Shown: positions 28,972 through 62,830 of the stretch, piece by piece
Numbering within the stretch: position 1 is the stretch's first letter
How the letters are laid out: each line of letters opens with the position of its first letter
Assembly (NCBI RefSeq): GCF_006345805.1
Contig: NC_043007.1
Coordinates: 72,912,001 to 72,976,000 of the forward strand
Reading direction: 5' to 3'
Source of the DNA: Octopus sinensis
Taxonomy: Eukaryota
DNA: 64,000 nt
Position numbers and translations under genes: made by a program
The notes under the pieces: generated by a model
Told to the model about the DNA's origin: nothing
The model's input: the letters and a program-made list of their open reading frames with translations, nothing else
The model's database searches: none

Positions 28972-29690
28972 TTATACTGATGAGTCATTGTACTCATTGA
29001 TCTGTTCCAACATATAACTTACAGGGACTGAAAAAATACTACGTTCACATCCATCTGAAAAGTTTGCACTGTAATCAGGCATTTCATTTAAAGATTCCAT
29101 TTTCTTAGGGCAAATATATTTGTCTTCAAACCAATTGGAATTATTTTCTTCAAATGTGGCAGCATTCTTAATTGTGTTTGTCAAAGAGTTAAATTTATGA
29201 TTGAGCTTGTTACTCTTGACACGAATAGCGAGCTCTTGATGCACTCTTGATCGATGGATTTTTTTAATAAGCGAGTTCAACTCTTTTGTAAGAGTGTAAC
29301 ACTTGATTGAAGGTAATTCACTGCTGATACTGGAGTTTGGTACCTGAGGAAACTTACAAATGATAAGTTTGTTGCTTGCATTAAGTTCTCTAAGAAGGGA
29401 AACTGTCAACAGTGCTGAGTTATCCTCTTTTAAAAAATTTATGTAATCTTGGTTGCTTTTCCATGCCTGAATTCTTTTGTGAAGAGCTTTGGAGTAAACA
29501 AGAATTATAAAATCAGACTTTTGAATTTCTAAACTCAGTCTTAATGGATCACCACCTTTCACTAGCCGAGCAGCAACTTCTAGTTTACATTTACTCTTAT
29601 TCATGAAAGATATAAACTTATCAATGGCTTCACAGTGGTAAGTATGGTCCTCTGTATAAAATAACAGCCCTCTTTTCTCTTGGAGTGTTC
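28972..29690 (-). CDS. IL-17 receptor-like protein, terminal exon with SEFIR domain
   Basis: Acceptor tattttcag at 29691. LLFYTEDHTYHCEAIDKFISF...EIQKSDFIILVYSKAL...LIICKF...CYTLTKELNSLIKKIH matches the SEFIR pattern (box 1 hydrophobic-Y-S/T-x-D-H; AD/SD-x-VIIVCS). Stop at 28972. Confidence 0.85.
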
Positions 29691-31229
29691 CTGAAAATAT
29701 AAATTCACACAATCAATAATAAAATATCAACAATATATGAGAATTAAAGGATTGAAATTCTTTAACTACATACAAGATCAACAGAATTAATCATACCATT
29801 TTACATGGCCCAGAAAAATAAAATTCTAAAACCAGCCACAATCAAACTTGAATTCAGAAAAGTGAGATTTCAAAATAGATATAATCATCTACAGAGGAAG
29901 TAAAGAAGTTATGTGGTCACTTGACATGCAAGAACTTTTAAATGTGACCTTAAAAAATGTGGCTGTCTAATCTTAATCTGATATCAGTTATTTAAACAAG
30001 GGTTATTGAGTTTCTAGAGAAATAGATCATTCCTAATAATAATAACTCTAAGCCATGTTCAAAGACACTTCACTTTACTAACTTAGTCACCAACTTCTTA
30101 AATTGATCTTTTTATGTGTTTCAGTTATTGGATTGTGGCCATGCTGGGGCAGTGCCCAATAGTTATTTTTTAAGTCTGGTACTTATTCTATCAGTCTCTC
30201 TTGCCACACAGCTATATTATAAGGATGGAGACAAACCAACACCAGTTCTCAAGAGATGGAGGGGAACAAACAAAAATACACACACACTGTCGATTTCTTA
30301 TAGTTTCAATCTTCCAAATGTACTCAGAAGGCCTTGGTTGGCCAAAGGCTACAGTAGAAGACATTTGAACAACAAGTCACACAGTAGGACTGAACCTAAG
30401 ATCACATTGTTTGGAAGCAAGCTTATATATCAATAAAAATATTCTCACATTCACACACACATATAAATAATGATAAGACAGGCTGTAAACTTTCATTCAT
30501 CGGAGAATCAAGGCTGTTTTATTTCACTGAACATTTCTGTGAATCTGTTGTAGTCCACCTAGCTGTAATAAGTATCTAATAAACCAATATCACAATTAGT
30601 TATAGTAGTATTACCATTACTGTCATGATTATTACAATCTCTGTTGATATATAATTATTACTTTGTCACCCATTATTGCTAATATAATCCTACTGCTGTT
30701 ATAACTAGTACCACCAGCACTTATTTTGATATTAGCAACCACAAGCTCTATCAATCATTCATTCTTCACATATATTCTAACAACCTTTACCTATCTTTCT
30801 TCATCCTTCTGTCTCTATGCTTTCTTCTATATTACCTTCTGGAACATGTTACCTTGAAGGTACACTCAAGTACCTCATCACCACAATCTCTCTTTTGGCA
30901 CCATTCCCTGTAACCCACCTACCCTTATATGAAATTGGGAAGCCTTGAATCTCCCCAACAGCAATAAACTTTTCTGGTTTTTCCCATCATATTTGAACCT
31001 CACATAAAACCAACTCATACTCTGATACTCTCTCTCTCAGTCTTGCAGATTACAAGGCAACATCACTAATGCTGGTGCCACCAGTACATATTTTCAAGTA
31101 GATGGCATAAAGAAGGCAATCCAGCCACAAGAACAATTGGAGAGAGATGTGATCCTCCAGTCTGTTGGATCTTGCTGAAATGATCAATTCATGCCAGCAT
31201 GGCAAGCGGACATGTTATGACCATAATAT

Positions 31230-34070
31230 TAAAGACTGCTTTAAAGATCGATGAGTTACCTCTTCTAGGTTCAGTAAAAAAGTCAGAGATAACAATGTTC
31301 TAGGATGCCCAGGAGGCTCCCTAGAAGTAGCAGATAGTTTCTGTTATCTAGGTAACCTAATTAGCAGCGGAAGCAGTGGAAGTATAGGATAAGGAGCAGT
31401 TAGAGAACTTTTAACTCTTTTAGTAACAAAAGTCCTCTCTCCCAGAGTGAAAGGCAGATTGTATGATGCCTGTGTATGAAACAGCAATGCTTTATGGTTG
31501 TGAAACTTGTTCTAAGAATTCAGAAGATATGTAAAGACTAGAGAGAAATAAAACTAACATGCTATGATGGACGGGTAATGTTAGTGTGCGTGTGCAACAA
31601 AGTACGTATGTACTGAAAGAAAAAATGGGCATTAGAATCATCAGATATTCTTGAACATATGCTGGGCAAGCCCCAGTTGTCTTTCATGGAGAGCATGGGG
31701 GCCATGGAATTGGTTCCTGAAATGAGGAGGGAACAAGGCTACTGGAGATCAGTGATGCAAATGACTTAATGATCTGCAACACCAACTTCAGAAAGCCAGC
31801 CAGTCACCTGATAACCTACAAATCTGGTGACCATGCTACACAGATTGATTACATTCTCACCAGAAAGTGGGATTCATGGCTGCTCATAAATGCAAAGACC
31901 TTCCCTGGAGAAGAATGTACCACACAGCATAGGTTACTCATTAGTTACTTCAAACTACTGGCACAAAGGATCCCAAGAAGCAACCAAGTTTCGAAAAAGA
32001 AGATATGGAAGCTTAAGGATCCTTTGAACAGTCAGAGATTTAAAGATGTCCTAAATGAAGCATTTAATGAGAAGGAGGAGGACTTGTAACATAGAGGATA
32101 ACTGGAAGCTCCTACAAGACAACTTACTGAGAGCTACAAACAAAATTTGTGGCTAGTGCAAAGTGCCAAACAGGCCTAAGGTGATGTATGGTGGAACAGT
32201 GTAGCTGACAGGGCCATCAGAGCAAAGAAACAGGCTTGGAAGGATTGGAAGGGTGTTGGTAGCAAGGAGCTAGATCAGGCAGCTAGAACGGAAGCTAGGA
32301 AGCAGGTATATTTAGCCAGAGGTAGAGCAAAAAGGAAGAAGTTGACCAATGTTCTGCAGCATGAGGACCATCAGCTTCAAGTGTTTTGGTTTGCAAGACA
32401 GTGTGCCAGGGAAAATTATGATGTGGGAGAGAAGTGTGCTCACATGGATAATGGTTCACTTGCATTTAGTGACTCAGCAAAAAGAGGCTTGAAAGTGCCT
32501 CTATGAAAGGCTGCTAAGTGTAGAGAACTCATGGGAGGAGGAGAGTCTGCTTATGGATCCAACAGAGGGACTATCAATCCAAATAGACAGAAGCATTTTA
32601 GGCAAAAATATGAAAGATATGAAGATGGGGAAAGCCTTCGGCCCATCAGGAATCACCACTGAGATGCTTAAAATATCTGGTGGTGTGGGCTATGGTTTAG
32701 TTGCCCATATATTTAAGCAGGTAGTACACAAAAAAGACATACCCAATGGCTGGTGTAGCAGCACCATAGTCAACTGCTACAAGGTGACACCTTAGATAGA
32801 AATAATTACAAAGGCATCAAATCGTTGGAACAAGTGATGTAAGTCACGGAGAGGATCATAGCCCAACTAATTAGGGAGAGAATTGGTTTAGATGAGATGC
32901 AGCTTGGTTTTGTGCCAGGGAAAAGGCACCTCTGATGCTACATTTCCAGAGTGGCAGTTGCAGGTGAAGTACCTAGCCAAAGATAAACTTCTGTACTTGA
33001 CTTTTGTTGACATGGAGAAAGCCTTTGACAGGATCTCCTGTTCCCTTATCTGGTGGTCAATGCAGAAACTAGGGATAGATGAGTGGTTGGTGAGAGTAGT
33101 ACAAGCTATGTACAAGGATGCAGTCAGTAAGGTGAGGGTTGGCAACAAGTATAGCGATGAATTCAAGGTAGAAGTAAGAGTTCACCAAAGATCAGTCCTC
33201 CACCCACCTCTTGTTCATCATAGTCCTCCAGGCAATAACAGAGGAATTTAAGATGGACTGCCCCTAGGAGCTCCTCTGTGCTGAGGATCTTGTTCTTAAA
33301 GCTGAATCACTACCAGAACTAGAGAAGAAATTTCAGGCATGGAGGCAATGCCTAGAAGCAAAGGGCCTCAAATGTGTATAGATGAGGAGAGCTGTGTAAA
33401 GAAGTGCTGATCTCTAACTGTAGAGGGAACCTGTGGAAGAGGTAGACCCAGGAAGACATGGGACAAGGTGGTGAAGTATGATCTTCAAATGTTGGGCCAC
33501 ACAGAGGCAATGACTAGTGACCGAGACATTTGACAATATGCTATGCTTGAGAGGAACCATCAAGTCAAATGAAATCACAGTTATGGCCAATGCCGGAATC
33601 ACATAACTGGTACCCATGTTGGTGACATGTAAAAAGCACCTTTCGAGTGTTGGGCCTCATGGAGGTAATGTGCAATGCTGGTGTCACATATCTAACACCT
33701 GTGCTGGTGTTGTATAACTAGCACCTGTGCCTTTCAAGAATCAGTCCTCACGGAGCAATGACAAATGACCAAGACCTTCAGCAATATGCCATGCTTGAGA
33801 AGAAGACCCATCAAGTTACATGAAATCCTAGTTGTGACAGCTACCAGTGTCATGCAACTGGCATCTATGCTAGTGGCACATAAAAGCACCCATTATACTC
33901 TCAGAGTGGTAGGCATTAGGAAGGGCATATAGCTGTAGAAACCATGCCAAATCAAACTGGAGTCTGGTGGAGACTCCAGCCTGCCAGCCCTGGTAAAACT
34001 GTCCAACCCATGCCAGCATGGACAATGGATGTTAAATGATGATGATGATGTTAATGATGATGATGATATT
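31230..34070 (+). mobile_element. Decayed RTE-clade LINE with 3' (GAT)n tail
   Basis: MICNTNFRKPASHLITY, QIDYIL, FVDMEKAFDRI and LIWWSMQKLGIDEWLVR; ends ...GGATGTTAAATGATGATGATG. Confidence 0.8.
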
Positions 34071-34332
34071 TACATTTCATTTGATTGCATTCACTTAACC
34101 TTTGCTAGTTCCAAATAGTTTTTTATGAAGAAACAGAAGATGAATATAATAATTTACTATACACAACTGTTATAAGATCACTATGGAATGATAAAAATTA
34201 ATCACCGAATTTTGAACTTCAGCTCAGTATAGTTTTTTGATAGAGAATGTCTCTGCTCTGCTGTTATTTGCAAACACTGGAGGTTGTGGCGACTGGGGTT
34301 CTCTGCTATTTAAATAACACAAATGAATCTAA

Positions 34333-34521
34333 CTAAATTTCAAACATTATCCACACAATGTGCCGAAAGAAACTACGATGGGGGCCCTCCAGGAGGTCCA
34401 GCATGAAGACCGTTTTCCCACACCCGGTCATTCCACAAATAATTGCAGAGTGGGGGCCCGGTGGAAAGAGTTGATGATACGAAGTATCAGTATAAGTTGA
34501 GCACTGAGACGAATCGGCCAT
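34333..34521 (-). pseudogene. Truncated A32/FtsK-like packaging ATPase (Polinton-type)
   Basis: PHSAIICGMTGCGKTVFMLDLLE Walker A motif, immediately downstream of the capsid frame. Confidence 0.75.
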
Positions 34522-35360
34522 CTTCGATGTTGAGCTGTGTGCCCATAATGATGTACAGGTAGACGTTCAATACACCCACGGCCTCTACCGCTTTCAGGAT
34601 CTGGATGGTCACACCCTCGCTGGCATTCTCAATGCGCCGGCCACTGCCATGGAGCTGGTCATTGTCCGTGGTGTGGAGGTCATGCCAGAGGGTGAACTTG
34701 GAGGTCAAGAACTACCCCAAAGACATGTCTTTAAGAGCAAGGTCTTTCACGACCATGGCCACCTCGAGATGTCACTTGCAGCCGGCGGCAAAGAACATCT
34801 TTGCTTCGACCCACTGCTGGTATGCATGCAGGCCTTGGCTGTACAGCTTGTTGGGGACCCCCTCAATGGTAACTTCTACGTTGGTTATCTTGGGGTTGTA
34901 GAAGGCCTTGGTGCCCCGCTGAAAGGCTTGATGCACAGCAACATCCTCAAACAACAACAGAATGCCCTTCATCGAGCGAGCAGGCATGTTCAGGTTAACG
35001 TTCCACAAAGTGTTGCTCTTGTTGGTTGCAATTTTGCGGTACCGCAGTACACGGTCGTACAGGATGGCCAGGCAGCCACTGTACTGGTTGCGGATCATCC
35101 TTGCCAGTTCAGGGAGTGTGACCATGTCATACTCCAGGCAGATGTTTTCAATGGAGTAACTGGGGTTAGCATCTCCAGTGGCCTGGACCATGAGGGAGTA
35201 GTCGTTAAATGTCAACTCCTACTCGAGCCTATCACCAAGTGCTGACTGGTAGAAGGGCATATGGCTCTCTAGAAGCTTGAAGTCGAGGGGAATGTAGAAG
35301 TGGTTGCCATAGGCTTCTACAATGGCACCGTCAGCTCCACCTGAGACACCGTCCCCAGCA
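34487..35360 (-). pseudogene. Polinton/Maverick-type major capsid protein, C-terminal part
   Basis: One continuous frame with three in-frame stops: FYIPLDFKLLESHMPFYQSALGDRLE*ELTFNDY...YNPKITNVEVTIEGVPNKLYSQG...LHGSGRRIENASEGVTIQI...YLYIIMGTQLNIEDGRF. Recognised as similar to invertebrate Polinton capsid proteins from memory. Confidence 0.75.
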
Positions 35361-35365
35361 CTCAC

Positions 35366-35800
35366 TTGAAGTTTGGTGACGTTCCAGTTGATGAACACGA
35401 TGTAGCCACAAAAAGGTATGTCGATAGCCGGAAGCCTCTCATAACCATGTGGGCTGAACGAAGTGGCACTCTTGGAACGGGCCAATATGAATGGTCATTC
35501 GGTGCTGGTGCTAATCTACCAATGCATGGCTACAACATGATGGCTGCAGGCAGGGTTCACCGAATGCGACTAACTGTAACCAGAGTTACCACTTCCCCGG
35601 GCACCATAGCAACGGTCAATATTGTGGTTAACGGGATAACATACATCATATGGGGTAACCTCAGACCAATACTCTGGTACTAATACATTTGGGACCCCAC
35701 TATAGCTTGCCCAATGCGACCGAGTAAGCTTCAGGTCAGCTACGACCAACGCTGATGTCCTCACTGCGTTTTAATTGAACTCGACCTGTAGCTTTGCCAT
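35366..35800 (+). pseudogene. Polinton-associated fibre/minor-virion-like protein fragment
   Basis: DEHDVATKRYVDS resembles the DAATKxYVD motif of viral fibre proteins, followed by beta-rich sequence; frameshifted. Confidence 0.45.
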
Positions 35801-35817
35801 AGTTACTCCATAACATC

Positions 35818-36510
35818 ATGAAGCAAGCAACTGCTCCACCAGCTGATAGCACATCAGTTAACAGCGAATCTGCTGGCAAGGCATACATCACACTAAGTTG
35901 TACGCCAACACTTTATCCACATCTGCCTTATCTCATTGATACTGCACAATCCCACTCGCTTCAAGAGGTCTCACAACTGGAAAAAGAACGACTTGAAGAC
36001 GAGAGGGACAAACAGGGTCAACTGTACAAAAAATACTGCCATGGGGTCAATGTTGTCGATGGCGTTGACACAGTGTTGGGGATGGGCATCGGTGGTGTGG
36101 GCCTTCTGTCTACCATTATTGTGGCCCCAGTAGTCTTGGGCCTTGAAATTGCGGCCCTGGCATGTGGCAGCCTTGGAGTAATAGGCAAGTTTGTTGGCCA
36201 CCGTCTCACAGTCAAAGCCAAAAAGCATAACGAGGTCAGACTCCTGGCAGAGAGCAAGCTGAATACCATCGCAGACCATGTCTCGAGTGCATTCATGGAT
36301 GGTTGAATCTCAGATGAAGAGTTTCGCCTCATTCTTGGTGAGCTCAACAAGTATGATCAGATTAAGGCAGAGATCCAGGCTGGAGCTAAAAAAGCACATG
36401 CTTCAGTGAAACCTCCGGTGTTGGATGAAGAGATAAAAAACTCGCTTATTCAGAGAGGCTGGGATGAGGTCAGGGCCAGTTTCATAAAGAAGTTGGTTGC
36501 ACCATAATCT
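35818..36510 (+). pseudogene. Polinton-associated hydrophobic helical protein
   Basis: ERDKQGQLYKKY...GVDT...LLSTIIVAPVVLGLE...KAKKHNEVRLLAESKLNTIADHVSSAFMDG*ISDEEFRLIL: one stop, frame continues to about 36510. Confidence 0.55.
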
Positions 36511-37331
36511 GCTTTATGAGGCCAAAAAGAGCACCACACAGCCTGCTTCCATACACCGTTACTCTGTAACTATCACAGCTTTCAGCCACTTTTTTATTTA
36601 TGTTCCCTTTGGGCCACCATACTGCTGTTATGACATCGTCATGTTTACTTCCTGGTTCAGCCATGTGCTATGACTACGTCATGTTTACATTCTGCCTTGT
36701 GCTATTATTTACTTCCTGTCCCACTTTGAAAAACCACAAGCATTTCACATAGCTGCATCAGCCTTCTAGAATGTATCGGAATATACATAGCTATGGATAG
36801 CAAAAAGGGCTGTTAAGTGGTGCTAAGTGCTGTTAAGGGCTGTTAAGTCTGTCGGTTTATATAAGCTGTAAATTAGTTGTCACACCTCCTAGACCGTGAC
36901 AAGTTTCTATCAGCGTGACAGGAATATCATAGCATGACAAAAATGGATGTAGACAGACCAAAAAAGAGAGTTTTCTCGTTTTTGGAGCAAATAGTCAAAG
37001 AAACAAACGTGTCTAAAGGCAAAGCACGTCCGGAATTGGCCAGAAAACTGAATGAACGAACAAGACATCTACAGTAAAGGAGAAAACAGAGAGAGAGGCT
37101 GAAAAAATAGCAATGGACTTAGAAACCACGGAAGCTCAAATACAGCTGGTCAAGGAGGACATTCAAAGGCTAGAGTCTGTGGTAGAGGAAGGGACAGATG
37201 GTGAGGATGAGTAAATGCCTCAGTCTTTCGGCTGTTAGTCTCAACAGTCCTATATGTGGAACTCTGATTGCTCCCACTTGATGGCCTATTCATGTAATGG
37301 AATGGGTTCAGGCACACTGACACTACCAGGA

Positions 37332-37382
37332 GCCATTAATACCTGCCAGGTGTTCTGATGAGGCCTTACAGGCCGAAATGGC
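37332..37382 (+). ncRNA. Type III hammerhead ribozyme fold
   Basis: GCCAU-U / AAUACCU-GCC-AGGUGUU / CUGAUGA / GGCC-UUACA-GGCC / GAAAUGGC: complete core with three helices; predicted cleavage after 37337 (AUU). Confidence 0.75.
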
Positions 37383-39819
37383 ACAGAGGTGAGTCATTTA
37401 TAGCTATTCTAGGGTTTGGGGTAAACCCTGGTTGTCGAGCTCCCCTGCTGTAAATATAAGCCCTTAGGCTGGCAAGGGGTCGTCCACCCTATGGCGAAGC
37501 TATAAGGCTCCTATTGGTACTCAGTATAGTATAGGGTTGGGATTACAAACGTGTATCATTGGGCTGGGGCCTGCCAGGGGTGTGGGGCGGGCCCTATCAT
37601 GTGATCTGTCCCAGAACCCCCACTAGATGTATATCTGGCTCCAATCCCAGCTTCCTACGTAACTGAGCCTGGTGGACCCCACACAATTTATTGATGCACT
37701 GTTTCCCGCAGCGCTTGGTCCACCCAACGACCAACCACTCGCATCAATTGTACTCAATCATACTGTTGTTTATACATAAGGCAAGCATTTGTCTAAATAA
37801 AAAATCGAACAGAGTATAAGCAGCCTGAGGTTAGCTGGGGCTATGTGGAAAATGGGCTGGACCCTATCATGTGATCTGTCCCAGAACCCCCATTAGATAT
37901 ACTACTCTTGACTGGCTTTTATTAATGCCTCCAACATGAACGATATATTTAAAAATCATTTGCTAGCAATGGGTTTCTGTATTTGGCATAAACTATTTAT
38001 GTGAAAAAAAAAGAAAATTTCAAAGATGAAATATATGAAATCTATATATAGGTCGATTTTAACAATGTTAATAAATGCAATCAGTTTCCATTTCAGGAAT
38101 TACAAAATTTGAACCACAAATTAGCAATATTTTGCCTACTCACACCTAAAAAAATTCCCGTTCTCATTGACTGATTATACATGGATATGTATGTAAAGAT
38201 ATATAATTGTAGGATATCACTTTTTCTCTTATTCTTTCTTTTTCATTATCTCTCATAATACAGAATATAACTGAAACTATCATCCTTTTTTTCAGTGTTG
38301 CACAGTGAGATCTTTATGAATATTAATTGCGACTGTGTTTTTTCTTTGAAGCTAAAAATTGTCTTTTCTTGGGTGGATTTTCCACCTAGCTCCTAAACTA
38401 TCAAAATGTTATATGAACAATTCAAATGCTAATAATACTTAACAGGTACAGCATTTTCCTTGTGAACTGTTAACAAGTCTTAAGTGCAGCCTGGCAATAA
38501 CACTATTTAAATGTTACACCATATAAAACGAAAACAAGCTCACGATGTGATTTTACAAAACTATCATTTCTCATAACCCGTTAGCGCCCATGGTCCTTTT
38601 TTTTTTTTGGCCCAGAAGGATCACGCATCTGTAGTAAGAAACTTTGTAGCAGATATATTTTGAACAGAAATCAACTAGATTTGTTCTGTGGAAATTTTCT
38701 TCTGACGCTAAAATACAAGTTTAGACAAAGATTTTTTTCATTGACTAAGAAAATATTAACCGAAGCCATCCTAGTTTTCAACCAAAAATTGTTCTGAAAT
38801 TTTAGTTCCTGGACACTCCAAAGTAGCTTATAAAAACCCAGGATTTCCAATATATTTTTAGTGACATCTAAGCTGCTACAGGAGAATTTGTCCTCACATC
38901 TGCATGTCTTGAAGTGGTGAATTATTTTTCAAACTCATGAAGTCGCCCTTGCATTATCTGTATTCTCCATCATGACCTTAAGTAATTTACCTAAATTCTT
39001 CGTGGAGCAGTTTGAAGAATTAGTTAAGAAATTTAATACTCGTCATTCTTCTAGACAAGTAAATTCTTAGAAGAAATTAGGAAAAGCCTTTTATCACCTG
39101 CCTTCTCGTAAATCTTAAAGTAAACTAAGGGAGAGCACCTGTTATATTTATAATACAGTTAAAACTATTGAATTTGAATTAAATAAAAATAACATTGAAT
39201 AAAATCTTGCGAGTCAGATTTCTATAATTTCTTGAGTATTGGTTTGAAAACAACCTGCAGGTTACTCACAAATAATTTTAACCACAAAAAGAAAAAAAAA
39301 ATAATCAGCAAAGAAGACAGGTTAAACATCATATTTCTGCAACACCTGTATTTTTCTGCGATATCTTTAGTCATCAAGACTGGAGTGTTTTTCAAATATT
39401 ACACCTAGTGTCTGATGTATATTGTCAACACTGATGTCTCAATTTTCAGTACGGTGTGAAAATCTTGAGGGAAAGGATACACTCAGTTTCAATCAAAAAC
39501 TTTTTGATAAGTAGTACTTATATCCAACCCATATTTGTATATAGTATAAACAATTGTTCTAACTGTCCAATAAAGTTAAGAAAATCTTTGAAAGTAATTT
39601 TGCTCAAATATAGCATGCTCTAAATGTTTGGTCCTAATATAAGGAGCATGGTCACTAGAACTCCATTTTTTCAATTTTCTATGGAAGTTGCATAAAAGAG
39701 AAAACAATCTGCAGAGATAAACTTTTTTATGCTGAAAACATTTTCTATGTATAGACAGCTGTGAAAAAAAAATTGTTCTTTTCTTTCTTTATTATTCTAA
39801 TTTTAGTTTTATTTTCAGA

Positions 39820-41047
39820 TGTTCTCCCATGGTTTTCTACCATTCAGTCAAGTCATTCTATTCAGTTCATGGTACAGTAAATTATGCAGAAGAAAATGAG
39901 TCTCCTAGTGATGAAAACTTTATTGATATTGTTGAACTTCCTCCACCAGTAAATGAACTGACTGATGAAGAAGACTTTGATGATGAGATTTTAGATGATG
40001 AGAACAGAAATCTAACCATTATCTTGTAGGATGTGCCAGAAAGTGTTGAGCTTCATCGGTATGATAATGAAGAAGTAACATAACCAAAAGGAAAAAAAAA
40101 AAGAAAAGCTCAGATTTCTCTTGGAAAAAGACTGATTTTTCCAAATTTGCATCACCAACTACTGATGGAGCAGATGATAGAATGAAATCAATGAAAGATA
40201 AAGTACTTGGCAAGAGCCAAGTTGAGATTTTTTAATCTCTGAATCAGAAGTTCAAGCAGTTTGGAATATTCTTTAAGAGGCTGTCAGTAGATGAAAACAT
40301 AGTAAGATACTATGGAAGAAGCTATCTAAAACAATTTATAAGAGTAAGCCAATAAGATTTGGTTTCAAGAAGTGGGTGCTTTGTTGTGCCACTAGTGGCT
40401 ATTATTTTAGAATGGATTTATATCAAGGAAAGCAAAAAAAAATCCTACTTCCAATACCAGGAATGATGACAGTCTAGGTTCAAGAGTCGTTTTATCAATG
40501 ACCAATCACTTAGAGAACCCCAATGATCATGAAATTTATGTTAACTTTTTCTCAAGTTATAACTTTAGGAATCAGAATCATGGGTACAGTATATTCAAAC
40601 AGAACATCCAGATGTCCCATGAAGGATAACAAATCCAGGAAAAAGGAAAATCATGGATCCTATGACCACAAATTTGAAGAAAAGGAAGAATTCTTTGTTT
40701 TGAAGTGGCATGACAACAGAATTTTCACAATTGCAAGCAATCATCAGTCTGCCACCCCTGTTGGAAATACTAAAAGATGGTCAACCAGCCATAGAAAAGA
40801 AATATTTGTTCCTCAGCCATTTCTCATAGCCAAGTATGACAAATATATGGGAGGTGTGGACCACTTAGACTGGCTTATCCAAAAGTATCACATCTCTGTT
40901 ACATGTAAGAAGTGGTACTTTAGTCTATTCACAAATTTCCTCGACACTATAATAGTTAATTCTTGGATTGTACACTGTTTTGCAAATGGAAATACTTTGA
41001 CATTACTAGACATTACTAGATTTCAAGAGGTCAGTTACACAAGCTAA
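39820..41047 (+). pseudogene. Decayed piggyBac-type transposase
   Basis: Acidic N-terminus (LPPPVNELTDEEDFDD), LSVDE, KPIRFGFK, LKWHDN, YDKYMGGVDHLDWLI..Y and KKWY...NSWI. Confidence 0.8.
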
Positions 41048-41435
41048 ATAATCCAACACAAACATCAGATATTTAATGGATTACTATTTACAAACAGTAA
41101 TAATAATTTCCTTCATCAAACATACATCAAAACATATACATATAAATAATGTCTCATATAAATATCCACAATTCATCATATTACAAAGGTGAAAGAACTA
41201 AATAGGAAATACATTTGTAAGTCTTGAATCCACATCAACATGGTCTTAGGTATTTAATTTGTGACAAAATAGGAACCACATCTACAAGAAATATTTCCTG
41301 AAATAGACTGGTGTCCTATATATGAGATTTAACTCATCTGCTTAAGACCATGTAATCAGGGCTAAGCTATCAGATATACAGATAATCTTGGTGATACTAC
41401 TTGAGCATATGTCTGAACAAAGATTGCATACTCAC

Positions 41436-41591
41436 GCTTGAAACAGTAAAAACTGAGAGCAAGAAGCAGAAGAATGATCATAGCACCAATAATAGCAAGG
41501 GATATGGTTAATTTAGAAGAGTTCTCTTTGTGTTTTGTTGATGTTTCATTGTTGTGCTTTGGTGATGGGGTTGTACATGGTGTACCAATCA
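41436..41591 (-). CDS. IL-17 receptor-like protein, stalk + transmembrane exon (156 nt, phase 1-1)
   Basis: Acceptor ttttattttatag, donor gtgagt; IGTPCTTPSPK...LTISLAIIGAMIILLLLALSFYCFK. Joins in frame to both neighbouring exons. Confidence 0.85.
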
Positions 41592-41869
41592 CTATAAAAT
41601 AAAATAGAAATCAAAATTTTGTTATTTTGTCAAAGACAAATTTGGAAATACTTTTTAAAAATATCAATTTAACTTCAATAAACAAAAGTATTGTTAAATT
41701 GGTCCAATAGCTGTTAGTTTCAATTCATCATATATAGAGAGAGACGATTTGTCTGATAACTGACAAGTGGTTGTAACACAGCTAAAATCAACTTGCTGCA
41801 GGAATTCATGCTATGAAATTCAATGACTTCAATAATCCACTATCATTACTGACACACACATCTCTCTCT

Positions 41870-44330
41870 CATATAATTCATTTGAACTAAACGTTTCACC
41901 TGAAAGGTTTTCATCCTGAGGGTGTTCTTCAGTACTTCATCCTTCATCTTTCTGGGTCTCCCACTTCTATGTGTTCCATCCACTTTGAGAGATCAGCACT
42001 TCTTTATGGAGCTGTCGACATCCACCCACATCACATAATTGAACCAGTACAGTCTTCTCTCTTGCACACAGCAACTAATTCCTCTTATGCCTAACTTCTG
42101 TCTCAGAACACTAGCACTCCGTTAAACATGTACACTAACACTACACATCCAGCGGAGCATACTTGCCTCGTTCCTTTCTAACCTTTGCATGTCCTCTGCA
42201 TTTAGGGCCTATGTCTCACTACCATGTAGAAATGCTGTCTGAAACCAAAGAACAAAAGGCCAAAGGAAAACGAAAAAAAAAAAATGTAGTCAACACCAGA
42301 GCTGAAGACACCTCCAAAATGGGGAGGGGCCCCACATGTTGACAACGGTAGAGGAGTAAGGGCCGAAACCAGATGTGGTTCCTCTTGATGATGTCCTTAG
42401 CCATTGGATCCTATAAAGAATCTGTTGAGATAACGAACCATGAAACATGGTTGGAATTCCTCCATGGTTTTCCTTTCACTTGGAGTCAGTAACGTTTCAT
42501 GGCCAACAGAGGTAGCAGCTCTCTGAATTTCTTCAATTCTATTCTTATTCTAGCTATCACTCACTCCATGCATCCTCCCCCACCATTAATTTGATCCCCT
42601 AGGTAGCAGAAATGATTTCCTACCACTAATGAACCACCAGAGCATTTGAGAGAATCAACTTCCTGAGTCTCTATAGTTTTTATAGATCCTGTGCATCTTC
42701 CACATATGAAAGCTATCTTCTCTGATAACCTTCTTATTAATCCACTGCACTGATTGTGTGTCCATAGCTTATACTGGGTACACCATATGGAATTCTTGCC
42801 TATGCCTTTCCTACGAATCAAACAGGGTCACCCACCTGACTTGGGCAGGATCCTGTCAGTATTCTTGCTTACTAGGACCTTAGATTTTGCTATGTTAACT
42901 TTAAGGCCACACCTGGAATTTCTCATCTAGCTTTGATATGAAATCCACTACAAGAGCAAGACCATCAGCATATAGTAGTTCCCAGGGTCTGCTTGGCTTG
43001 AATTCCTCTGTTATGGCCTGAAGGACAATGATGAAAAGGAGGAGACTAAGGATTGAGCCTTGATGAGCCCCTACCTTTGAACTAAATTCTTTACTGTACT
43101 CTTGGTTAATTCTCACCTTACTAACAGCCCCTTTGTACATGGCCTGTACAGCTTTCATCAGCCTCATCAGAGTCCACCACATCACACAGTGGGGCACTTG
43201 ATCAAAGGCTTTCTCTAGATCAACAAATTCCAAGTATAATGGTTTATTCTTAGCTAAGTACTTCTCTTGAAGTTGCCAGACTGAAAATAGCATCAGTAGT
43301 GCTTCTTTCCCAGACAAAGCTGAACTGCATTTCGTCTAGCCTATGTCTGCTCCTAATTGATTGGGCTATAACTCTCTCTGTAATTTTCATCACCAGATCT
43401 AGGAGTTTGATGCCTCTGTAATTGCTTCTATTTAGTGCATTGACCTTACTCTTGTAGCAGTTAACAATTATGCAGCTATGCCAGTCACTGGGTATTACAA
43501 CTTCCTGAATGACCGGATCAATTATGTGGGTGACCAGCCCATATCCTACCTGACTGGATATTTTAAGCATCTCAGCTGTGAATCTGGATGAACCAAGGGC
43601 TTTCCAGATTTTCAAGTTTTCAATTGCAATATGTACCATACAGCCGTCCACTAGATCTCTCTATTGGGTTTAAATGAGGAAGACTCCCTTTATCCCATTC
43701 ATTCTCTACATTCAACAGTCTTGCATAGTAACTTTTCCATGCTTCTTTCTTGTCCACATCATTAAGTGCAAGCATACCATTATCCATCTGCACACACTCC
43801 TCTCCTACAATATCTCAATTCTCACTGACACACTGTCTGGAAATCTGGAAAACTGATCTTCATGCTGTAGGACTTTGGCAAACCTCTTCCTTTATGCTGA
43901 ATAGACCTGGCATCTAGCCTCCTTTTTAGCTTTCTGATAAGATTTTTTCATACCCTATTTTCCACTCTTTCCAGGCTTGTCTTTTCTCTTTTATGGCTCT
44001 GTTAATGTCACTAGCCCTTAGTAGATTGTCCCCTAAGAACTTCCAGTTGTCCTCTACATCATATGTCTCTATCTCTCCTTCCTTCTCATCATAGGCGTCA
44101 TTGAGGACATCTCTAAATCTCTACCTACTTGAGGGATCCTTGAGCTTCCACAGCCACCTTTTCCATGCTGGATTGCATCTCAGAATCTTTCTGGCCCAAA
44201 ACCTGAGGTCACTCATCACTAGCTTATTTTGAGTTGTACATTTTGCATTTATGGGCATATATCTATCCATGTGTTTGGTGGGGATGTAGTCAATCTGGCT
44301 ACTGTATCCTCCTTATAAAGCAACCCTTTA
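41870..44330 (-). mobile_element. Decayed RTE-clade LINE
   Basis: NYRGIKLLD, YLEFVDLEKAFDQVP, HQGSILS and WELLYADGL, with many disruptions. Confidence 0.8.
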
Positions 44331-44663
44331 TTTGAAAATAATATTCAATCACTATTTTCAAATTGTGACCTCACTGTCTGTTTTATCTACCACTACTATC
44401 TGCTGCTCATCAGAACTGGCTGGCTACCCATCATCCTAATTCCTCCCATTATATATACTGTCTTATTTCCCATACATCCATTAAGCACCTTACTCATTAC
44501 TTCAACCATCATGCAACTATATTACTCTGAAGCTCCCACAGATCTTATATCCATTCCCCATCAACCTTTGATGCTGATTCCCAAACATTTTATGCAAAAT
44601 ACACAACATATAATCTGCATTTTAATAATGATTTTTCTTGGGCATTATTTTAGTTTTGCTTAC

Positions 44664-44766
44664 CTGTAAAATTATTGGTCTTTGACCGATTACATGTGTT
44701 ACAATATTCATATAATTTACATATACATTTCTTACTATCATTCCAAAATTCATCAAATATTTCAAC
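44664..44766 (-). CDS. IL-17 receptor-like protein, Cys-rich membrane-proximal ectodomain exon (103 nt, phase 0-1)
   Basis: Acceptor tttttttctttttaaag, donor gtaagc; VEIFDEFWNDSKKCICKLYEYCNTCNRSKTNNFT. Confidence 0.82.
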
Positions 44767-45648
44767 CTTTAAAAAGAAAAAAAAACACATCTACTGAATA
44801 AATATTTAAATAAACAAACAAATGAGAAAGAAGCTTCAATACTTTCATCATAACATATCCTTGTACTTTAACCTCACATCTTTCTTTCTTTCCAGTTGGG
44901 GAAGCCACATGTATTCACCTCTTCAGCAAGACACCTACCCCTGTCCCTCTGACACACTTTCACCTCCCTCAATACTATACTTCACTTGTGATTTCACAAG
45001 TGCTGGTGCCACAGAAAAAGCACCCAATACACTTTGTAAAGTGGTTGGTATAAGGAAGGATATCCAGCTGTTGAAACCATACCAAAGCAGATGTAGTTTG
45101 GCACAACCCTCTGGCTCATTGGTTCCTGTCAAAATGTCCAGCCTATTCCAGCATGGAGAAAAAGACATTATATGATAATGAGGGAGATGATCATCCTAGC
45201 AAGGAAATAACGAATGCAAGTAGTCTTAAAGTTCTACTTCTTCAGACAACAGAAGCAAGACAATGTATTGTTAGAGCCCAAACAACATTAATCAAATCCA
45301 AAATTAATTTTAAATGATTTCTCAAAATTCTGTAAAAAATAATTTTTTTAATGGAGTTCTGAGGGGATCATTTCTAACATGTGCAATAAAAGAAATCTTA
45401 CATGGAAATTAATCTGTAGAGGCCAAAGCCAGTTGAAGGGAAGAGCACCACATTTAATAACATACACTTTACCCATAAACACTTCAAGATAACTCTTACC
45501 GGCCTTACAGCGAACCCAACCAACGGACATAACTCCAAGCCTAATCCCCTGACCCTTTTTCACAGCAGCCACAAACTAGATGTGTTAATTCACCTCTGAC
45601 AATAGAGAGCAGTTGTCATATTCCCTTCCATATCAGCTAACTCTGATG

Positions 45649-46163
45649 AACATAAATCCTCGAGTATAGTCCACCCTTGAGTATAATACGCAGGGGATTT
45701 TTAGGGGGCTGTACCTCTGAAAAACCTAAACCTTGAGTAAAATACGCACCCTTTCTCTAACTTGAGTCAAGGAGGTCTATATAACTTCCTTGGTTTGTAA
45801 AAATGTATACGGTAACATCCTTTATTATTATTGTATATATAACATAATGCAAACATGTAGCTTTTGTGTGCATTTTGTTTGCAGAAAATAAAGAAATAAC
45901 AGTAATAACGTTGAATAAATGTTGCTTACTGCAAGTTATGGATGATTCTTCTATGACTTTATTGCTTTCAGGCTTAGCTTAAGGTATTTTCATGCACAAC
46001 ATCACAAAATGCGTCTGAATAAACATTGCCAGACAGCAAATAGAGACGCGGACATTGCTTAGAAAATAAGTTTCATTTTTAACCTCATATATAGTACGCA
46101 CTAGGGATTTTGACCTTTAAAGTTTTGGGAAAAAATGCGGATTATACTCGAGGATTTACGGTA
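45649..46163. mobile_element. Tigger/pogo-type MITE
   Basis: Termini ..CATAAATCCTCGAGTATAGTCC and GCGGATTATACTCGAGGATTTACGGTA are inverted; no ORF. Confidence 0.75.
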
Positions 46164-51884: not shown

Positions 51885-53371
51885 CTGCAAAAGTAAAGGG
51901 AAACCATTTATGTGAACATAAACATTACACTGATAGTAAATGTTAAAGTAGGCCAAGGTTGACAAAATTTAAGCAGGAAAGAAAATATTTAAGGTTACAA
52001 TTTTCATGTCAACATTTGAATGATTGTTGTTCCCACAATGTTACAAGAGAGATTCCCACCAACAAGCTTCAATACTTTTATTGCTGAATTTCATCTTTAA
52101 CATTAAAGATGACCATGTCCCCTTAAATGTCAGAAACTTGCAGTAGAAATGTTTGTGAATGTCTAGACTCAATAACAGCAGAAAGATGTCCTTCTTCCTA
52201 TTAATATAATTCTGTGCAATTAAATAGGAGTTAAGAATCAGCTTCAATGCACTTCCATAGAATATACATCAATATTAGTAAATACATGTGAATACCAAAA
52301 TTACTTACTGCATAAGGTGGTGAGCTGGAAGAATTCTGATAAAAAAAAGTACCAGTTAAGGATTGAGATCAATGTAATCGACTTACTCTTTCAACCAAAC
52401 TTGCAGACTTTGTGGCAATATTTGAAACCAATAATACTGGCTACATATGTAGTCCAGTTACAAATCAATATTAAAATATAGAAATAAAAAATGTTAACCT
52501 TCCATTTTCACATTATCATCAATGCCGTTTACCACCTCATTCATCCTACAGCTTCTATGCTTTTGGAACACTCACTTACACAGTAAATTAGATCAACTAG
52601 GTTTTTTGAGCATTTAAAAGACTTACATAAGCTCTATCTGCAAACTCTTCCTGTGCATACAAAGTCTACCTTCTCTGTAAGCCAGTGACCTCACTTACAC
52701 TTGTTTTATGTCCATAATTTACATTGGGTGTGCTATATGAAATTTCTACCTATTCAGTTTTTTGCAAAACTATCATTTTCCTGATGGTATCAGAGTCTGT
52801 TTTCCCTTCTTACTAAAATCTTAGTCTGCTGCTGGCTTTTGCAGTATCATCATCATTATCTTCTTGCACATCTCGTCTTTATTGACATTTATCATTATCA
52901 ACAACATTCATAATTTTACCTGTGTATATTAGAATCTTGTTGATCCTCCTCACTTCTATGTCAATTACTTTTCTCATCAAAAATATTAAATTTACTAACA
53001 CTTTTTGTCAATATTTCTGATTCTACCATTTATTCTACCACTGAATGGCTACTCTTTAAGATACAAGGAAATGTGATAATTCTTCTTTACACATACTTAC
53101 TTTAAATCTGTTGTTGATGTTAGTCTTCTCTAACATCTGATATAAAATATTAAAATACTTGTAAAATATGCGTAGTCAAAATGTTGTGCAGTATATTAGC
53201 TCATTCCCTCCATCACATATACAATGCATATACCGGTGCCACACATCAGATGTCAAAGTAATTGCAGAGTAACATGAGATGAAGTATTTTTTCTCAAGAT
53301 CACAATGTGCAACCTGGCAATTCGGAAATATCCAATGTCAAGAATATGAAATTCTTTTTTTTATCTTTTCA

Positions 53372-53800
53372 TCTAGTTTCAGCTCAGGAGCTGTGGACAT
53401 GCTGGGGCACCACCATTTGGTGTTGCTACATGATTTTACTTCATGAATGCTTTTTAGCAATTGACATTTGGTGCATGAGAGAGTTTGATGCAGCTGCACT
53501 CATTTGCACCTCCTCTCACGAAGTTGGTTCATCTGGGACACCTGACAGGAAGAGGTCCTAATTTATTTTGAAGACACCTACATCCACCCCATCCAGGTCT
53601 CTCAGGTCCTTTGGGAGAATATTGAAGAGCTGTGGACCTCTGAAGCCCAGGCTATTGCAGTATCTTGTCCTACATCTTGATAGAAAATTTGGAGTCCTTA
53701 GCACTAAGCAGTGGAGCCCAGTTCTTGTATTTATATAACCCTCGATGTCAAAGTTTGGGACAAGTCCTTCCAGGATCTTCCAGATGTATATTATGTAAAA
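53372..53800 (-). mobile_element. 3' fragment of the same CR1/L2-like family as 8010-10760
   Basis: IIYIWKILEGLVPNF...RCRTRYCNSLGFRGPQLFNILP and the same 3' tail. Confidence 0.9.
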
Positions 53801-53824
53801 TTTATTTAAATGCATTCATCTGAA

Positions 53825-53827
53825 TAT

Positions 53828-53876
<49 letters not shown>

Positions 53877-54003
53877 AAAACATATATATATATACATACA
53901 TAAAAACATATATATATACATACATAAAAACATATATATATATACATACATAAAAACATATATATATACATACATAAAAACATATATATATATATATATT
54001 ATA

Positions 54004-54050
<47 letters not shown>

Positions 54051-54127
54051 ATATATATATATATACATATATTATATATATATATATCTATATATATATA
54101 CATATATATACATATATATATATATAC

Positions 54128-54158
<31 letters not shown>

Positions 54159-54161
54159 CAC

Positions 54162-54208
<47 letters not shown>

Positions 54209-54212
54209 ATAC

Positions 54213-54261
<49 letters not shown>

Positions 54262-54266
54262 CATAT

Positions 54267-54300
<34 letters not shown>

Positions 54301-54311
54301 CATATATATAC

Positions 54312-54342
<31 letters not shown>

Positions 54343-54651
54343 ATACATATATATACATATATATATATATATCTATATATATATATATACAATATATACA
54401 TATATATAATACATATACATATATATACATATATACATATATACACATATATATATATATACATATACTATATATATATATACACATATTATATATACAC
54501 ATATATATATATACATATATATATATACAAAGATATATATATATATATATATATAGATATACACATATATATATATATATACATATATTATATATATATA
54601 TATATATATACACATATATATATATACACATATATATACATATATATATAT

Positions 54652-54724
<73 letters not shown>

Positions 54725-54928
54725 CACATATATATATACATATATATATATATACACATATATATATACATATATATATATACACATATATACACATATA
54801 TATACATATATATATATATACACATATATATATACATATATATATATATACATATGTATATATACATATGTATATATACATATATATATATACATACATA
54901 TATATATACATATATATACATATATACA
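53825..54928. repeat. Long compound (TA)n/(TACA)n microsatellite
   Basis: Directly visible. Similar tracts at 7815-8010, 10760-10935, 19420-19710, 55325-55745 and 56150-56485 produce the YI-rich ORFs. Confidence 0.98.
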
Positions 54929-55323
54929 GGCGCAGGAGTGGCTGTGTGGGAAGTAGCTTGCTAACCAACCACATGGTTCTGGGTTCAGTCCCACTGCGTG
55001 GCACCTTCGGCAAGTGTCTTCAGCTATAGCCCCAGCTGACCAATGCCTTGTGAGTGGATTTGGTAGACGGAAACTGAAAGAAGCCTGTCGTATATATGTA
55101 TATATATGTGTGTGTGTCTGTGTGTTTCTATGTCTGTGTTTGTCCACCTAGTATTGCTTGACAACCGATGCTGGTGTGTTTACGTCCCCGTCACCTAGCG
55201 GTTCGGCAAAAGAGACCGATAGAATAAGTACTGGGCTTACAAAGAATAAATCCCAGGGTCGATTTGCTCGACTAAAGGCGGTGCTCCAGCATGGCTGCAG
55301 TCAAATGACTGAAACAAGTAAAA
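54929..55323 (+). mobile_element. Full-length tRNA-derived CORE-type SINE
   Basis: Same family as 46698-47112. Confidence 0.9.
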
Positions 55324-55467
55324 GATATATACATATATACATAATATATATACATATATATATATACATATATACATATATACATATATATATATACATA
55401 TATATAGATACATATATATATATATACATATATATATATACATATATATATATACATATATATATAT

Positions 55468-55514
<47 letters not shown>

Positions 55515-55564
55515 TATATATACATTATATATATATACATATATATATACATATATATATATAC

Positions 55565-55633
<69 letters not shown>

Positions 55634-55658
55634 CATATATTATATATATATATATATT

Positions 55659-55692
<34 letters not shown>

Positions 55693-55955
55693 AATTATAT
55701 ATATATATATAATACATATACATATATTATATATACATATATATAAATAATTGAGTAGTTGAATGAATTATCTTATTATGGATAATTCGGTTAACCGATA
55801 CCTGGGTAGCAAATTCACGTCAGAGAAACACGGTTGAAGCTACATGCCTAGGGCAGAAATCACGTGCTATCGTGTGGAAATTTGTGTGTTTTTTTAAATA
55901 CAAATAAATGAAAGAATGGAGTTGAACGATGAATTAACAAAATTACTTTATTTTA

Positions 55956-56039
55956 TTTTCGACATATGTTTCGAAGGCTGCATATTCCTAATTTCGAAGG
56001 AAAAAGGGGTGCATTATGCCGCCTTCTCATCAGGAAAAA
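55956..56039 (-). ncRNA. Type I hammerhead ribozyme fold (Penelope-associated minimal type)
   Basis: UUUUC / CUGAUGA / GAAGGCGGCAUA...UAUGCAGCCUUC / GAAAC-AUAU-GUC / GAAAA; GUC site between 55961 and 55960. Confidence 0.8.
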
Positions 56040-56179
56040 CAAGGAACTTATTCCTTCGAAATTAGGAATATGCAGCCTTCGAAATATATGTCGAAAATAA
56101 AATAAAAGAATTTTGTTAATTCGTCGTTCAACTCCATTCTTTCATTTATTTGTATATATATATATACATATACATATAC

Positions 56180-56229
<50 letters not shown>

Positions 56230-56356
56230 ATACATATACATATATATATATATTACATATACATATACATATATATATACATATATATATATATATACAT
56301 ATATAATATACATATACATATATAATATACATATACATATACATACATATGCATAC

Positions 56357-56400
<44 letters not shown>

Positions 56401-56420
56401 CATATATATATATATACATA

Positions 56421-56484
<64 letters not shown>

Positions 56485-57278
56485 TGTTATATTTCGGAAT
56501 GGTCATTTTGCCAGTTTAGCCAATAAAAACACACGCACTATATATTTGGTGTTATTTTGCTTCAGTGTTATTTATTTTTTACACTAATCTTAATCTTATT
56601 TCGGCCAGAGTTCTTTCATCACACTCCTGTGACTGCATCAGTGGTCCATTGATTTCTTCTTTCTTATTTGTGTCTCTCCTTACTAACCCTCAGCCATTTT
56701 GTATTTCTATTGTATGTCTTCATTTGCGCATGCTTATATCTCTATGTGCGTCTATGTTTATTTAGTGTGTAGGTGGGATGCCTGTAATATTTGTATCTTC
56801 TGTTTATATACGTTCATGTAATTTGTTTTTGTTGTTGTTGTTTTTGTTTATTCTTATTTTGTTCATGTGTTTACATCCACTTATTATTATCATTACATAT
56901 GCTTGTATGTATGTATAACAACAATACTAGTAATAATAATAATAAATTTTTAAAAACTTATATAAATAACTATATAAGTTTTTTTTATTATTATTATTAT
57001 TACTAGTATTGTTGTTATACATACATACACTAGTATTGTTGTTATACATACATGGCATGGCTCGTGAAGGAACATTTTTTTTTTTTTTAAAGGTTCTCTG
57101 TCCCAATGAGTTTCGAAGATAATAGTTTATGACTAGATTGCTGATGTAAAATAATTTAAAAAATGATAAATTCTATGTTTCTTTCAAGATTGTAAAAGAA
57201 ATAAGGTGCATTAATAAAGATAAATATGATTCTAATATAGCTTTGCAATCTGAAAGGTAATTTAATAAAAATACTTAC

Positions 57279-57294
57279 ATACTTCCGCCTGTGT
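57279..57294 (-). CDS. Candidate micro-exon of the IL-17 receptor-like gene (16 nt)
   Basis: Acceptor ccctctctttttccttttcag, donor gtaagt; TQAEV+t joins in frame to exon 51884. Confidence 0.45.
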
Positions 57295-57789
57295 CTGAAA
57301 AGGAAAAAGAGAGGGATTTAAAAAAAATATTTCATTCTTAGGGAATTTAATTTCAATGTTGTCGTTTTAAACTAGTTTTGAGTAATCCATATTGAAGTTA
57401 ACTTATAATAAGAGATCAAGCTCATGTCAATCCCATCTTTTATTTAGACATATCTAGAACAAAATTACTCATTGTGATCTTCCACTTTAAAGACACTACA
57501 GTATGATTTCAGCAAGATTTTGATGCTAATTTTAACTGTTTCAGCAATCATATAATTTTGTGTTAGTTTCATGAAAGTAAAATATATGGGCGCAAGAAAA
57601 TCTCATACCACTAAGTTTTGCATATTCTTTTATTCTTTTACTTGTTTCAGTCATTCAACTGCAGCCATGCTGGAGCACCACCTTTAAGTCAAACAAATTG
57701 ACTCCAGGGCTTATTCTTTGGAAGCCTAGTACTTATTCAATCGGTTCCTTTTGCTGAAATGCTAAGTTACGGGTACATAAATGCACCAG

Positions 57790-62730: not shown

Positions 62731-62830
62731 NNNNNNNNNNNNNNNNNNNNNNNNNNNNNNNNNNNNNNNNNNNNNNNNNNNNNNNNNNNNNNNNNNNNNN
62801 NNNNNNNNNNNNNNNNNNNNNNNNNNNNNN
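62731..62830. other. Assembly gap (100 N)
   Basis: Run of N. Confidence 1.

Follow-up and report, generated by a model that had tools for sequence, protein, structure and literature searches.

Is the GC-richer island in an intron of an octopus receptor gene the trace of an integrated virus, and how much of that virus is left? We addressed this question for a window of 64,000 nucleotides from Octopus sinensis (contig NC_043007.1, positions 72,912,001 to 72,976,000 of the forward strand); coordinates refer to this window unless a contig or locus is named. Positions 34354-37906 are very probably the remnant of a capsid-encoding element of the Polinton/Maverick type. It likely goes back to one integration, lost about three quarters of its length through two deletions, probably decays neutrally and is spliced out with the intron. 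An initial annotation had placed the relic at 34333-36510. The relic was confirmed there, but its right end appears to lie at ∼37906, 1.4 kb farther on. The remnant of ∼3.5 kb, probably an inactive fossil and an ordinary sort of relic, consists of the following parts:

34354-34518, minus strand: 5' stub of an A32/FtsK-like packaging ATPase, ∼55 codons, with Walker A (by sequence similarity)
34487-35391, minus strand: double-jelly-roll (DJR) major capsid protein, C-terminal ∼300 codons (by similarity and fold)
35366-35392: internal deletion junction, ∼4.1-4.3 kb gone (by synteny)
35366-35791, plus strand: fibre-like accessory ORF, C-terminal part, 2 internal stops (relatives match PHROG tail-fibre families)
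35818-36507, plus strand: helical accessory ORF of 229 codons, hydrophobic in its middle part, family-conserved, one stop at 36304
36508-37906: subterminal region that contains a direct repeat of 49 bp (37583-37631 and 37853-37901), likely terminus at 37906

Genes and limits of the remnant

The GC content is 0.48 across 34354-37906 compared to 0.315 in the right host flank, and the GC-richer island that had been described is thus borne out. Its left neighbour, an RTE LINE, is also GC-rich (0.43-0.45) and makes the island less sharp on that side. For this reason we set the left edge of the relic by its CpG content and not by GC.

Most of the identification is carried by the capsid. Six-frame translation revealed a minus-strand frame that spans 35391-34487. 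Three stops interrupt it (codons at 35221, 34774 and 34714), the assembly shows no frameshift, and in comparison with 120 relatives no capsid residues are missing at conserved positions. The frame is therefore colinear and interrupted by stops only, as had been claimed, and it is truncated at the N-terminus: the relic aligns to residues 134-432 of a relative of 434 aa, so the N-terminal ∼134 aa are lost. With X placed at the stops, the capsid query had matches at E ≤ 0.001 in 1266 of 1813 candidates, with 74-75% identity for the best, which are ∼430 aa long. A profile search found 2765 representatives. One match, from Elysia marginata (A0AAV4F0V7), bears the UniRef name 'Major capsid protein'. 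The Pfam scan of the relic capsid returned no family; in intact relatives PF16903 (Capsid_N) gave weak matches under the cut-off (E 8e-5 and 5e-3). A PDB sequence search with the capsid profile gave nothing significant and hence no solved relative, and the IMG/VR scan gave no relative. Atlas neighbours of the capsid include Preplasmiviricota clusters. In a quick tree the relic was nested in its family on a branch of 0.29 (median 0.1) with no close sister. At position 34858, within the capsid frame, one base is missing from part of the depth in contigs of the sequencing runs X3 and X8, which indicates a frameshifted allele or copy elsewhere.

The AlphaFold model of the relic capsid is mediocre (mean pLDDT 59, pTM 0.52) and covers mainly one jelly roll. 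Foldseek nevertheless returned 32 matches for it at E ≤ 0.001, and the top rows (E 1e-5 to 5e-3) are capsids of PBCV-1, an iridovirus, mavirus, EhV, faustovirus and Sputnik. VIA-align ranked EhV-201 first (Z 9.1) followed by PBCV-1 (Z 8.6), with an rmsd of 3.3 and 3.5 over 134 aligned positions that fall on the C-terminal jelly roll of both chains. The best matches of both methods are DJR capsids, as in a Polinton/Maverick source. The stop-repaired protein thus models as a jelly roll, and the opposite outcome, named beforehand as evidence against a polintovirus, did not arise.

The frame of the ATPase begins at 34518, where it overlaps the capsid end, and carries the Walker A motif GMTGCGKT, in agreement with the adjoining Walker-A ATPase start noted initially. 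Its best Pfam match is Pox_A32 (E 0.0014, below the curated cut-off), and the stub shares 67% identity with the intact A32 ATPase encoded by the metagenomic relative L028, an ATPase that itself passes Pox_A32. An A32/FtsK-like ATPase thus lies beside the capsid, as it does in Polintons/Mavericks. Similarity is lost at ∼34356, where the breakpoint of the second deletion lies. Beyond it follow 38 AT-rich bases, and the host sequence common to the receptor paralog C ends at 34315. The second deletion therefore removed the remainder of the ATPase, the integrase, the polymerase and the left end. The polymerase and integrase had been reported as absent, and this stands: the similarity gives way to host sequence, and searches of the octopus genome with pPolB and integrase of the relative L032 as queries found no match at the relic locus. 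Because both genes are absent at the locus, we filed it as a remnant of the Polinton family and not as a complete member.

The two opposite-strand ORFs are present as plus-strand remnants at ∼35366-35791 and 35818-36507. The gap between the anchors in the fibre-like ORF and the capsid measures 4171-4335 bp in three relatives compared to ∼60 bp in the relic, so these ORFs lie ∼4.2 kb farther from the capsid in the relatives and the internal deletion is real. The proposal of an internally deleted element is correct to that extent, but there were two deletions rather than one. Capsid identity (to L029) extends to 35391 and weak identity to the fibre-like ORF starts at ∼35366, which places the abrupt junction near 35390, within ∼25 bp of the 35365 given initially. 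The overlap at 35366-35391 could possibly represent microhomology at the junction.

On the right side, the terminal 9-mer of the family, AGTAGTATA in minus-strand reading, occurs at 37898-37906 in the expected orientation, and at 37906 the GC content falls from 0.47 to 0.31 and 0.23. The 9-mer was contained in 20 of 2000 resamples (p about 0.01). A 52-bp stretch at 36721-36772 matches the subterminal region of the relative L034 (E 3e-4). The 9-bp motif at the GC step and this one match make 37906 the likely right terminus. The small ORFs at 36930-37214 were considered as a counterpart of the subterminal ORF of L066, but were not counted, as the similarity reached only E 0.4-1. A left TIR arm of the relic was looked for and not found.

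The parent family and its known relatives

A metagenome scan returned 87 relatives; 80 loci were kept and 15 long loci were examined for gene order. The ATPase directly follows the capsid in all 15, and the opposite-strand 229-codon ORF lies upstream in 10 of them, while the rest mostly end too early. Nine loci were mapped as far as each contig reaches and showed a single gene order: 229-codon ORF, fibre-like ORF (which in the intact relatives matches PHROG tail-fibre families), three ORFs, capsid, ATPase, small ORFs, integrase and a long replication ORF. The search for full-length relatives with pPolB and integrase, which had been suggested as a check, was successful. Metagenomic L032 carries both (PF03175, E 7e-14; rve, E 4e-10) together with Pox_A32, and L028 carries Pox_A32 and rve (E 1e-8); rve was thus found in both relatives tested and PF03175 in one of the two. 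The long ORF in the polymerase position of L028 (L028:9967-13596) matched AAA helicase-like families and not PF03175, which suggests variation of the replication module inside the family. TIRs were observed in two of nine relatives (L032 and L066), both beginning with AGTAGTATA, and L066 is flanked by a 5-bp TSD. With a capsid that models as a jelly roll and full-length relatives that have an A32 ATPase, rve integrase, pPolB and TIRs, the reading as an endogenous polintovirus is upheld.

Polintons are defined in 10.1101/2023.08.22.554363 by a length of 13-25 kb, TIRs of 100-1500 bp and a TSD of 5-8 bp. Its rve integrase, pPolB, TIRs and 5-bp TSD match the parent family to the definition given there. 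Polintons/Mavericks, the animal polintoviruses, share with the relic a DJR major capsid adjoining an A32-like ATPase, whereas the relic copy has no pPolB, no integrase, no minor-capsid candidate and no left end. Among the 12 ORFs of L032 Pfam found no maturation protease, and neither a maturation protease nor a minor capsid (penton) was matched by Pfam or PHROG among the scanned L032 ORFs. The relic also resembles a capsid family of marine invertebrates (E. marginata A0AAV4F0V7; L028, L030, L032, L035, L045 and L066), with which it shares gene order, orientation and a capsid identity of 67-75%. The members of this family are intact, whereas the relic stands without a close sister in the quick tree. 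At the DNA level its identity to the nearest known relatives is just ∼70%. Close capsid relatives were also encountered as 'hypothetical proteins' on short contigs of Candidatus Thiodiazotropha symbiont MAGs (the cluster of P0010, P0025, P0043 and P0098). These are probably Polinton DNA of the host clams that was binned into bacterial genomes.

According to PMC8502044, adintoviruses resemble the parent family in being animal-associated and in combining integrase, PolB, hexon and FtsK-like ATPase with helical accessory ORFs. The same paper describes degraded endogenous relics of adintoviruses, including one on human chromosome 7; compared to such relics the present one is far less decayed. Polinton-like elements are widespread in invertebrates and SEFIR receptors are multi-copy in molluscs, according to the respective reports (10.1101/2024.03.25.586562, 10.1101/2025.04.19.649669, 10.1101/2023.10.06.561300, PMC8353272). 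By title and abstract, in a coverage without most subscription papers and Repbase, no report of the relic locus was found. What the relic records is a past germline integration of a widespread and largely unnamed Polinton lineage of marine invertebrates.

The model of the 229-codon ORF shows four long helices (pLDDT 67, pTM 0.33). This ORF may be the 'GasderminX' of adintoviruses, a gene of their Beta virion module with a gasdermin C-terminal-like fold. Foldseek gave no match to the model at E ≤ 0.001, so that a gasdermin fold is without support, and a PDB sequence search with the profile of the ORF gave no match.

Host gene, copies and distribution

The relic had been assigned to the intron between the transmembrane (TM) and SEFIR exons of an immune receptor, with capsid and ATPase in the same sense as the host pre-mRNA. 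The exon frame and a junction contig confirm the position, and since capsid, ATPase and the host features below are all on the minus strand, the orientation is confirmed as well:

41436-41591, minus strand: host transmembrane exon of an IL-17-receptor-like gene, phase-1 donor
28972-29690, minus strand: host SEFIR exon (PF08357, 26.6 bits, above the cut-off), in frame with the TM exon
29691-41435, minus strand: host intron, 11.7 kb long, that contains the relic together with remnants of an RTE LINE and a piggyBac-like element

In contig 11 of run X17, position 41435 is followed directly by 29689, at a depth of 53. The TM segment is thus spliced in frame to a SEFIR domain, with an open joined frame, as in IL-17 receptor-like genes; the label rests on these two exons. 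With a probable RNA contig that joins TM to SEFIR exon, the relic is intronic and spliced out. Relic pieces in runs X16 and X17 have a depth of 2.4-3.5, similar to the 2.5-4 of other intron pieces, though both runs are RNA only by assumption and contig depth reflects expression poorly. As the relic is spliced out and decays like neutral DNA, nothing links it to the function of the receptor. We also considered a truncated decoy receptor produced by intronic polyadenylation. There are two AATAAA on the host strand, but no supporting joint or contig among the matches listed, and the candidate was rejected. Of the other mobile-element remnants in the intron, the piggyBac-like transposase extends over 38577-41050 (PF13843, E 3e-18) and the RTE LINE over 31600-34050 (RVT_1).

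In the 2.7-Gb assembly, DNA, capsid and ATPase queries each recovered two copies of the relic and no more, both on C11; counts from such own-genome searches are lower bounds. The second, near-identical copy lies 94.5 kb away in a tandem duplicate of the receptor gene that is ∼98% identical and includes the relic (C11:72845324-72873235 against window 27844-55749); between the duplicates A and B there are only 11 mismatches over 32000-46000. Two sites tell the copies apart; at these, X3 has the letters of one copy only and X8 those of the other only, in contigs that drop variants. This hints that A and B may be alleles assembled in tandem, i.e. an artefact of the assembly rather than a host duplication. 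The whole cluster of SEFIR receptors (C11:72825000-73033100) comprises four copies: A and B are near-identical, C has 86% SEFIR identity, and D lies in inverted orientation and has a disrupted SEFIR exon. The relic occurs in A as well as B but in neither of the paralogs C and D. As a presence/absence marker it can serve to order the duplications of the tandem cluster. We searched C and D for a clean empty site and a TSD and obtained neither. In paralog C a 1.4-kb RTE fragment takes the place of 6.75 kb; the site is thus not cleanly empty and yields neither a TSD nor a firm date. Farther along the window there is an assembly gap of 100 Ns (62731-62830), and from 62831-64000 onward the sequence is a ∼97%-identical repeat of 52425-58590, possibly an artefact of the join.

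At least half of the sampled words of the relic are held by 10 runs with 4 organism labels from 6 studies, and the best holder may be the source of the assembly itself. None of the holders was recorded as RNA, which says nothing about expression. Contigs of X8 span both deletion junctions and those of X3 the internal one; as both junctions occur in contigs of another organism label, the deletions are old. In X3 (76% of the run covered) the depth of the relic contig was halved, although depth is no copy number. An X8 contig also crosses the left junction between host and relic.

These observations bear on two other explanations. Contamination or mis-assembly might be suspected from the near-identical copy 94.5 kb away and from capsid relatives that stray into bacterial MAGs. 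It is effectively refuted by the spread of relic words across runs, labels and studies, by the X8 contig across the host-relic junction and by a host-like CpG decay. A non-autonomous Polinton derivative, which was deleted before moving and then mobilised in trans, would be compact, as the relic is, and could have kept one terminus and old junctions of the kind that the X8 and X3 contigs span. Such a derivative is extremely unlikely, however, as there is one terminus only, no sibling copies were found and the breakpoints lie inside genes.

Decay and possible roles

We compared the relic with its intact relatives to characterise its decay. The CpG observed/expected ratio is 0.50 in the capsid and 0.41 in the 229-codon ORF compared to 0.73-1.17 in intact relatives. 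The relic capsid departs from its family at 18 of 151 conserved columns, a number that just 1 of 120 relatives equals or exceeds. For the 229-codon ORF the departures amount to 10 of 107 columns, with 7 of 120 relatives as high, and in a test with six relatives the ORF fell inside the range of the intact ones. Six of its eight conserved arginines are lost (Fisher p 3e-6) and five residues at conserved positions are missing. The arginine excess of the capsid is not significant (3 of 12, p 0.16). CpG depletion, the loss of conserved residues and the intron-level RNA cover point to neutral decay.

The most likely history would begin with a virus particle that entered the germline and integrated by means of its own rve integrase. 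The searches recovered no close sibling copies, which fits infection better than a burst of transposition. The two deletions shown by synteny left about a quarter of the element, and the CpG loss suggests that decay was driven by methylation. The site, deep in an 11.7-kb intron that is spliced out and holds other mobile-element remnants, may have made the insertion tolerable, and one later copy could have arisen through host duplication.

There is no evidence of co-option. That the 229-codon viral accessory ORF, or small RNAs from the relic, were recruited to the IL-17-receptor-like locus as a virus-derived part of innate immunity is very improbable. We regard it as very unlikely that the host kept or co-opted the 229-codon ORF, e.g. 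for a membrane-active or immune role, while the rest was trimmed around it. The ORF is the sole full-length ORF of the relic with both start and stop present. It has one stop, and contigs of X3 and X8 carry a different letter at that site, so this stop is not fixed. Moreover, a low-depth contig of probable RNA covers 36092-36324, and an unrelated copy of the ORF family on C2 has an open frame of 215 codons. On the other hand, the ORF is without the six arginines and five residues described above, its CpG ratio is the lower of the two, and the RNA depth across it equals intron background. At the stop rate of the capsid we would expect at most one stop with P 0.32 and none with P 0.09, and the small number of stops is therefore compatible with chance.

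An antiviral memory, in which viral sequence in the receptor pre-mRNA feeds piRNAs or siRNAs against related viruses, also seems highly improbable. The relic does lie in a transcribed intron of an immune receptor with its fibre-like and 229-codon ORFs antisense to the host transcript, and one study reportedly found somatic piRNAs in molluscs. Against this, capsid and ATPase are sense to the transcript, ∼70% DNA identity to the nearest known relatives is low for targeting by small RNAs, and the decay looks unconstrained. Unless co-option is shown, the decaying Polinton remnant leaves both Polinton biology and receptor function unchanged.

The host genome otherwise seems to hold only few such elements. 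The integrase query of the octopus genome gave 69 weak matches with 28-42% identity over the core only, none of them at the relic locus. On C5 (103279001-103290292, L128-L129) we encountered one full copy of an 11.3-kb element with 26% GC, long open frames and 321-bp TIRs that are 99% identical. It was found by protein query and encodes a PolB-like protein of 1166 aa (34% identity to L032 PolB) that carries PF02945, along with a Pox_A32 ATPase and a DJR capsid; the capsid (PF21738, E 9e-30) belongs to another lineage than that of the relic. No integrase match and no TSD were seen for this element, and its short ORFs may be protease-like and PLA2-like. By these features it is an intact-looking, integrase-less endogenous Polinton-like element, unrelated to the relic and of a more unusual kind. 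Further degraded Polinton-like relics were located at C2:74565474-74573781, C8978:28148-29682 and C4:1294722-1294997. The one on C2 carries the open 215-codon relative of the accessory ORF beside a fibre-like ORF; its capsid is broken and of the C5 type, and it also gave a weak integrase match.
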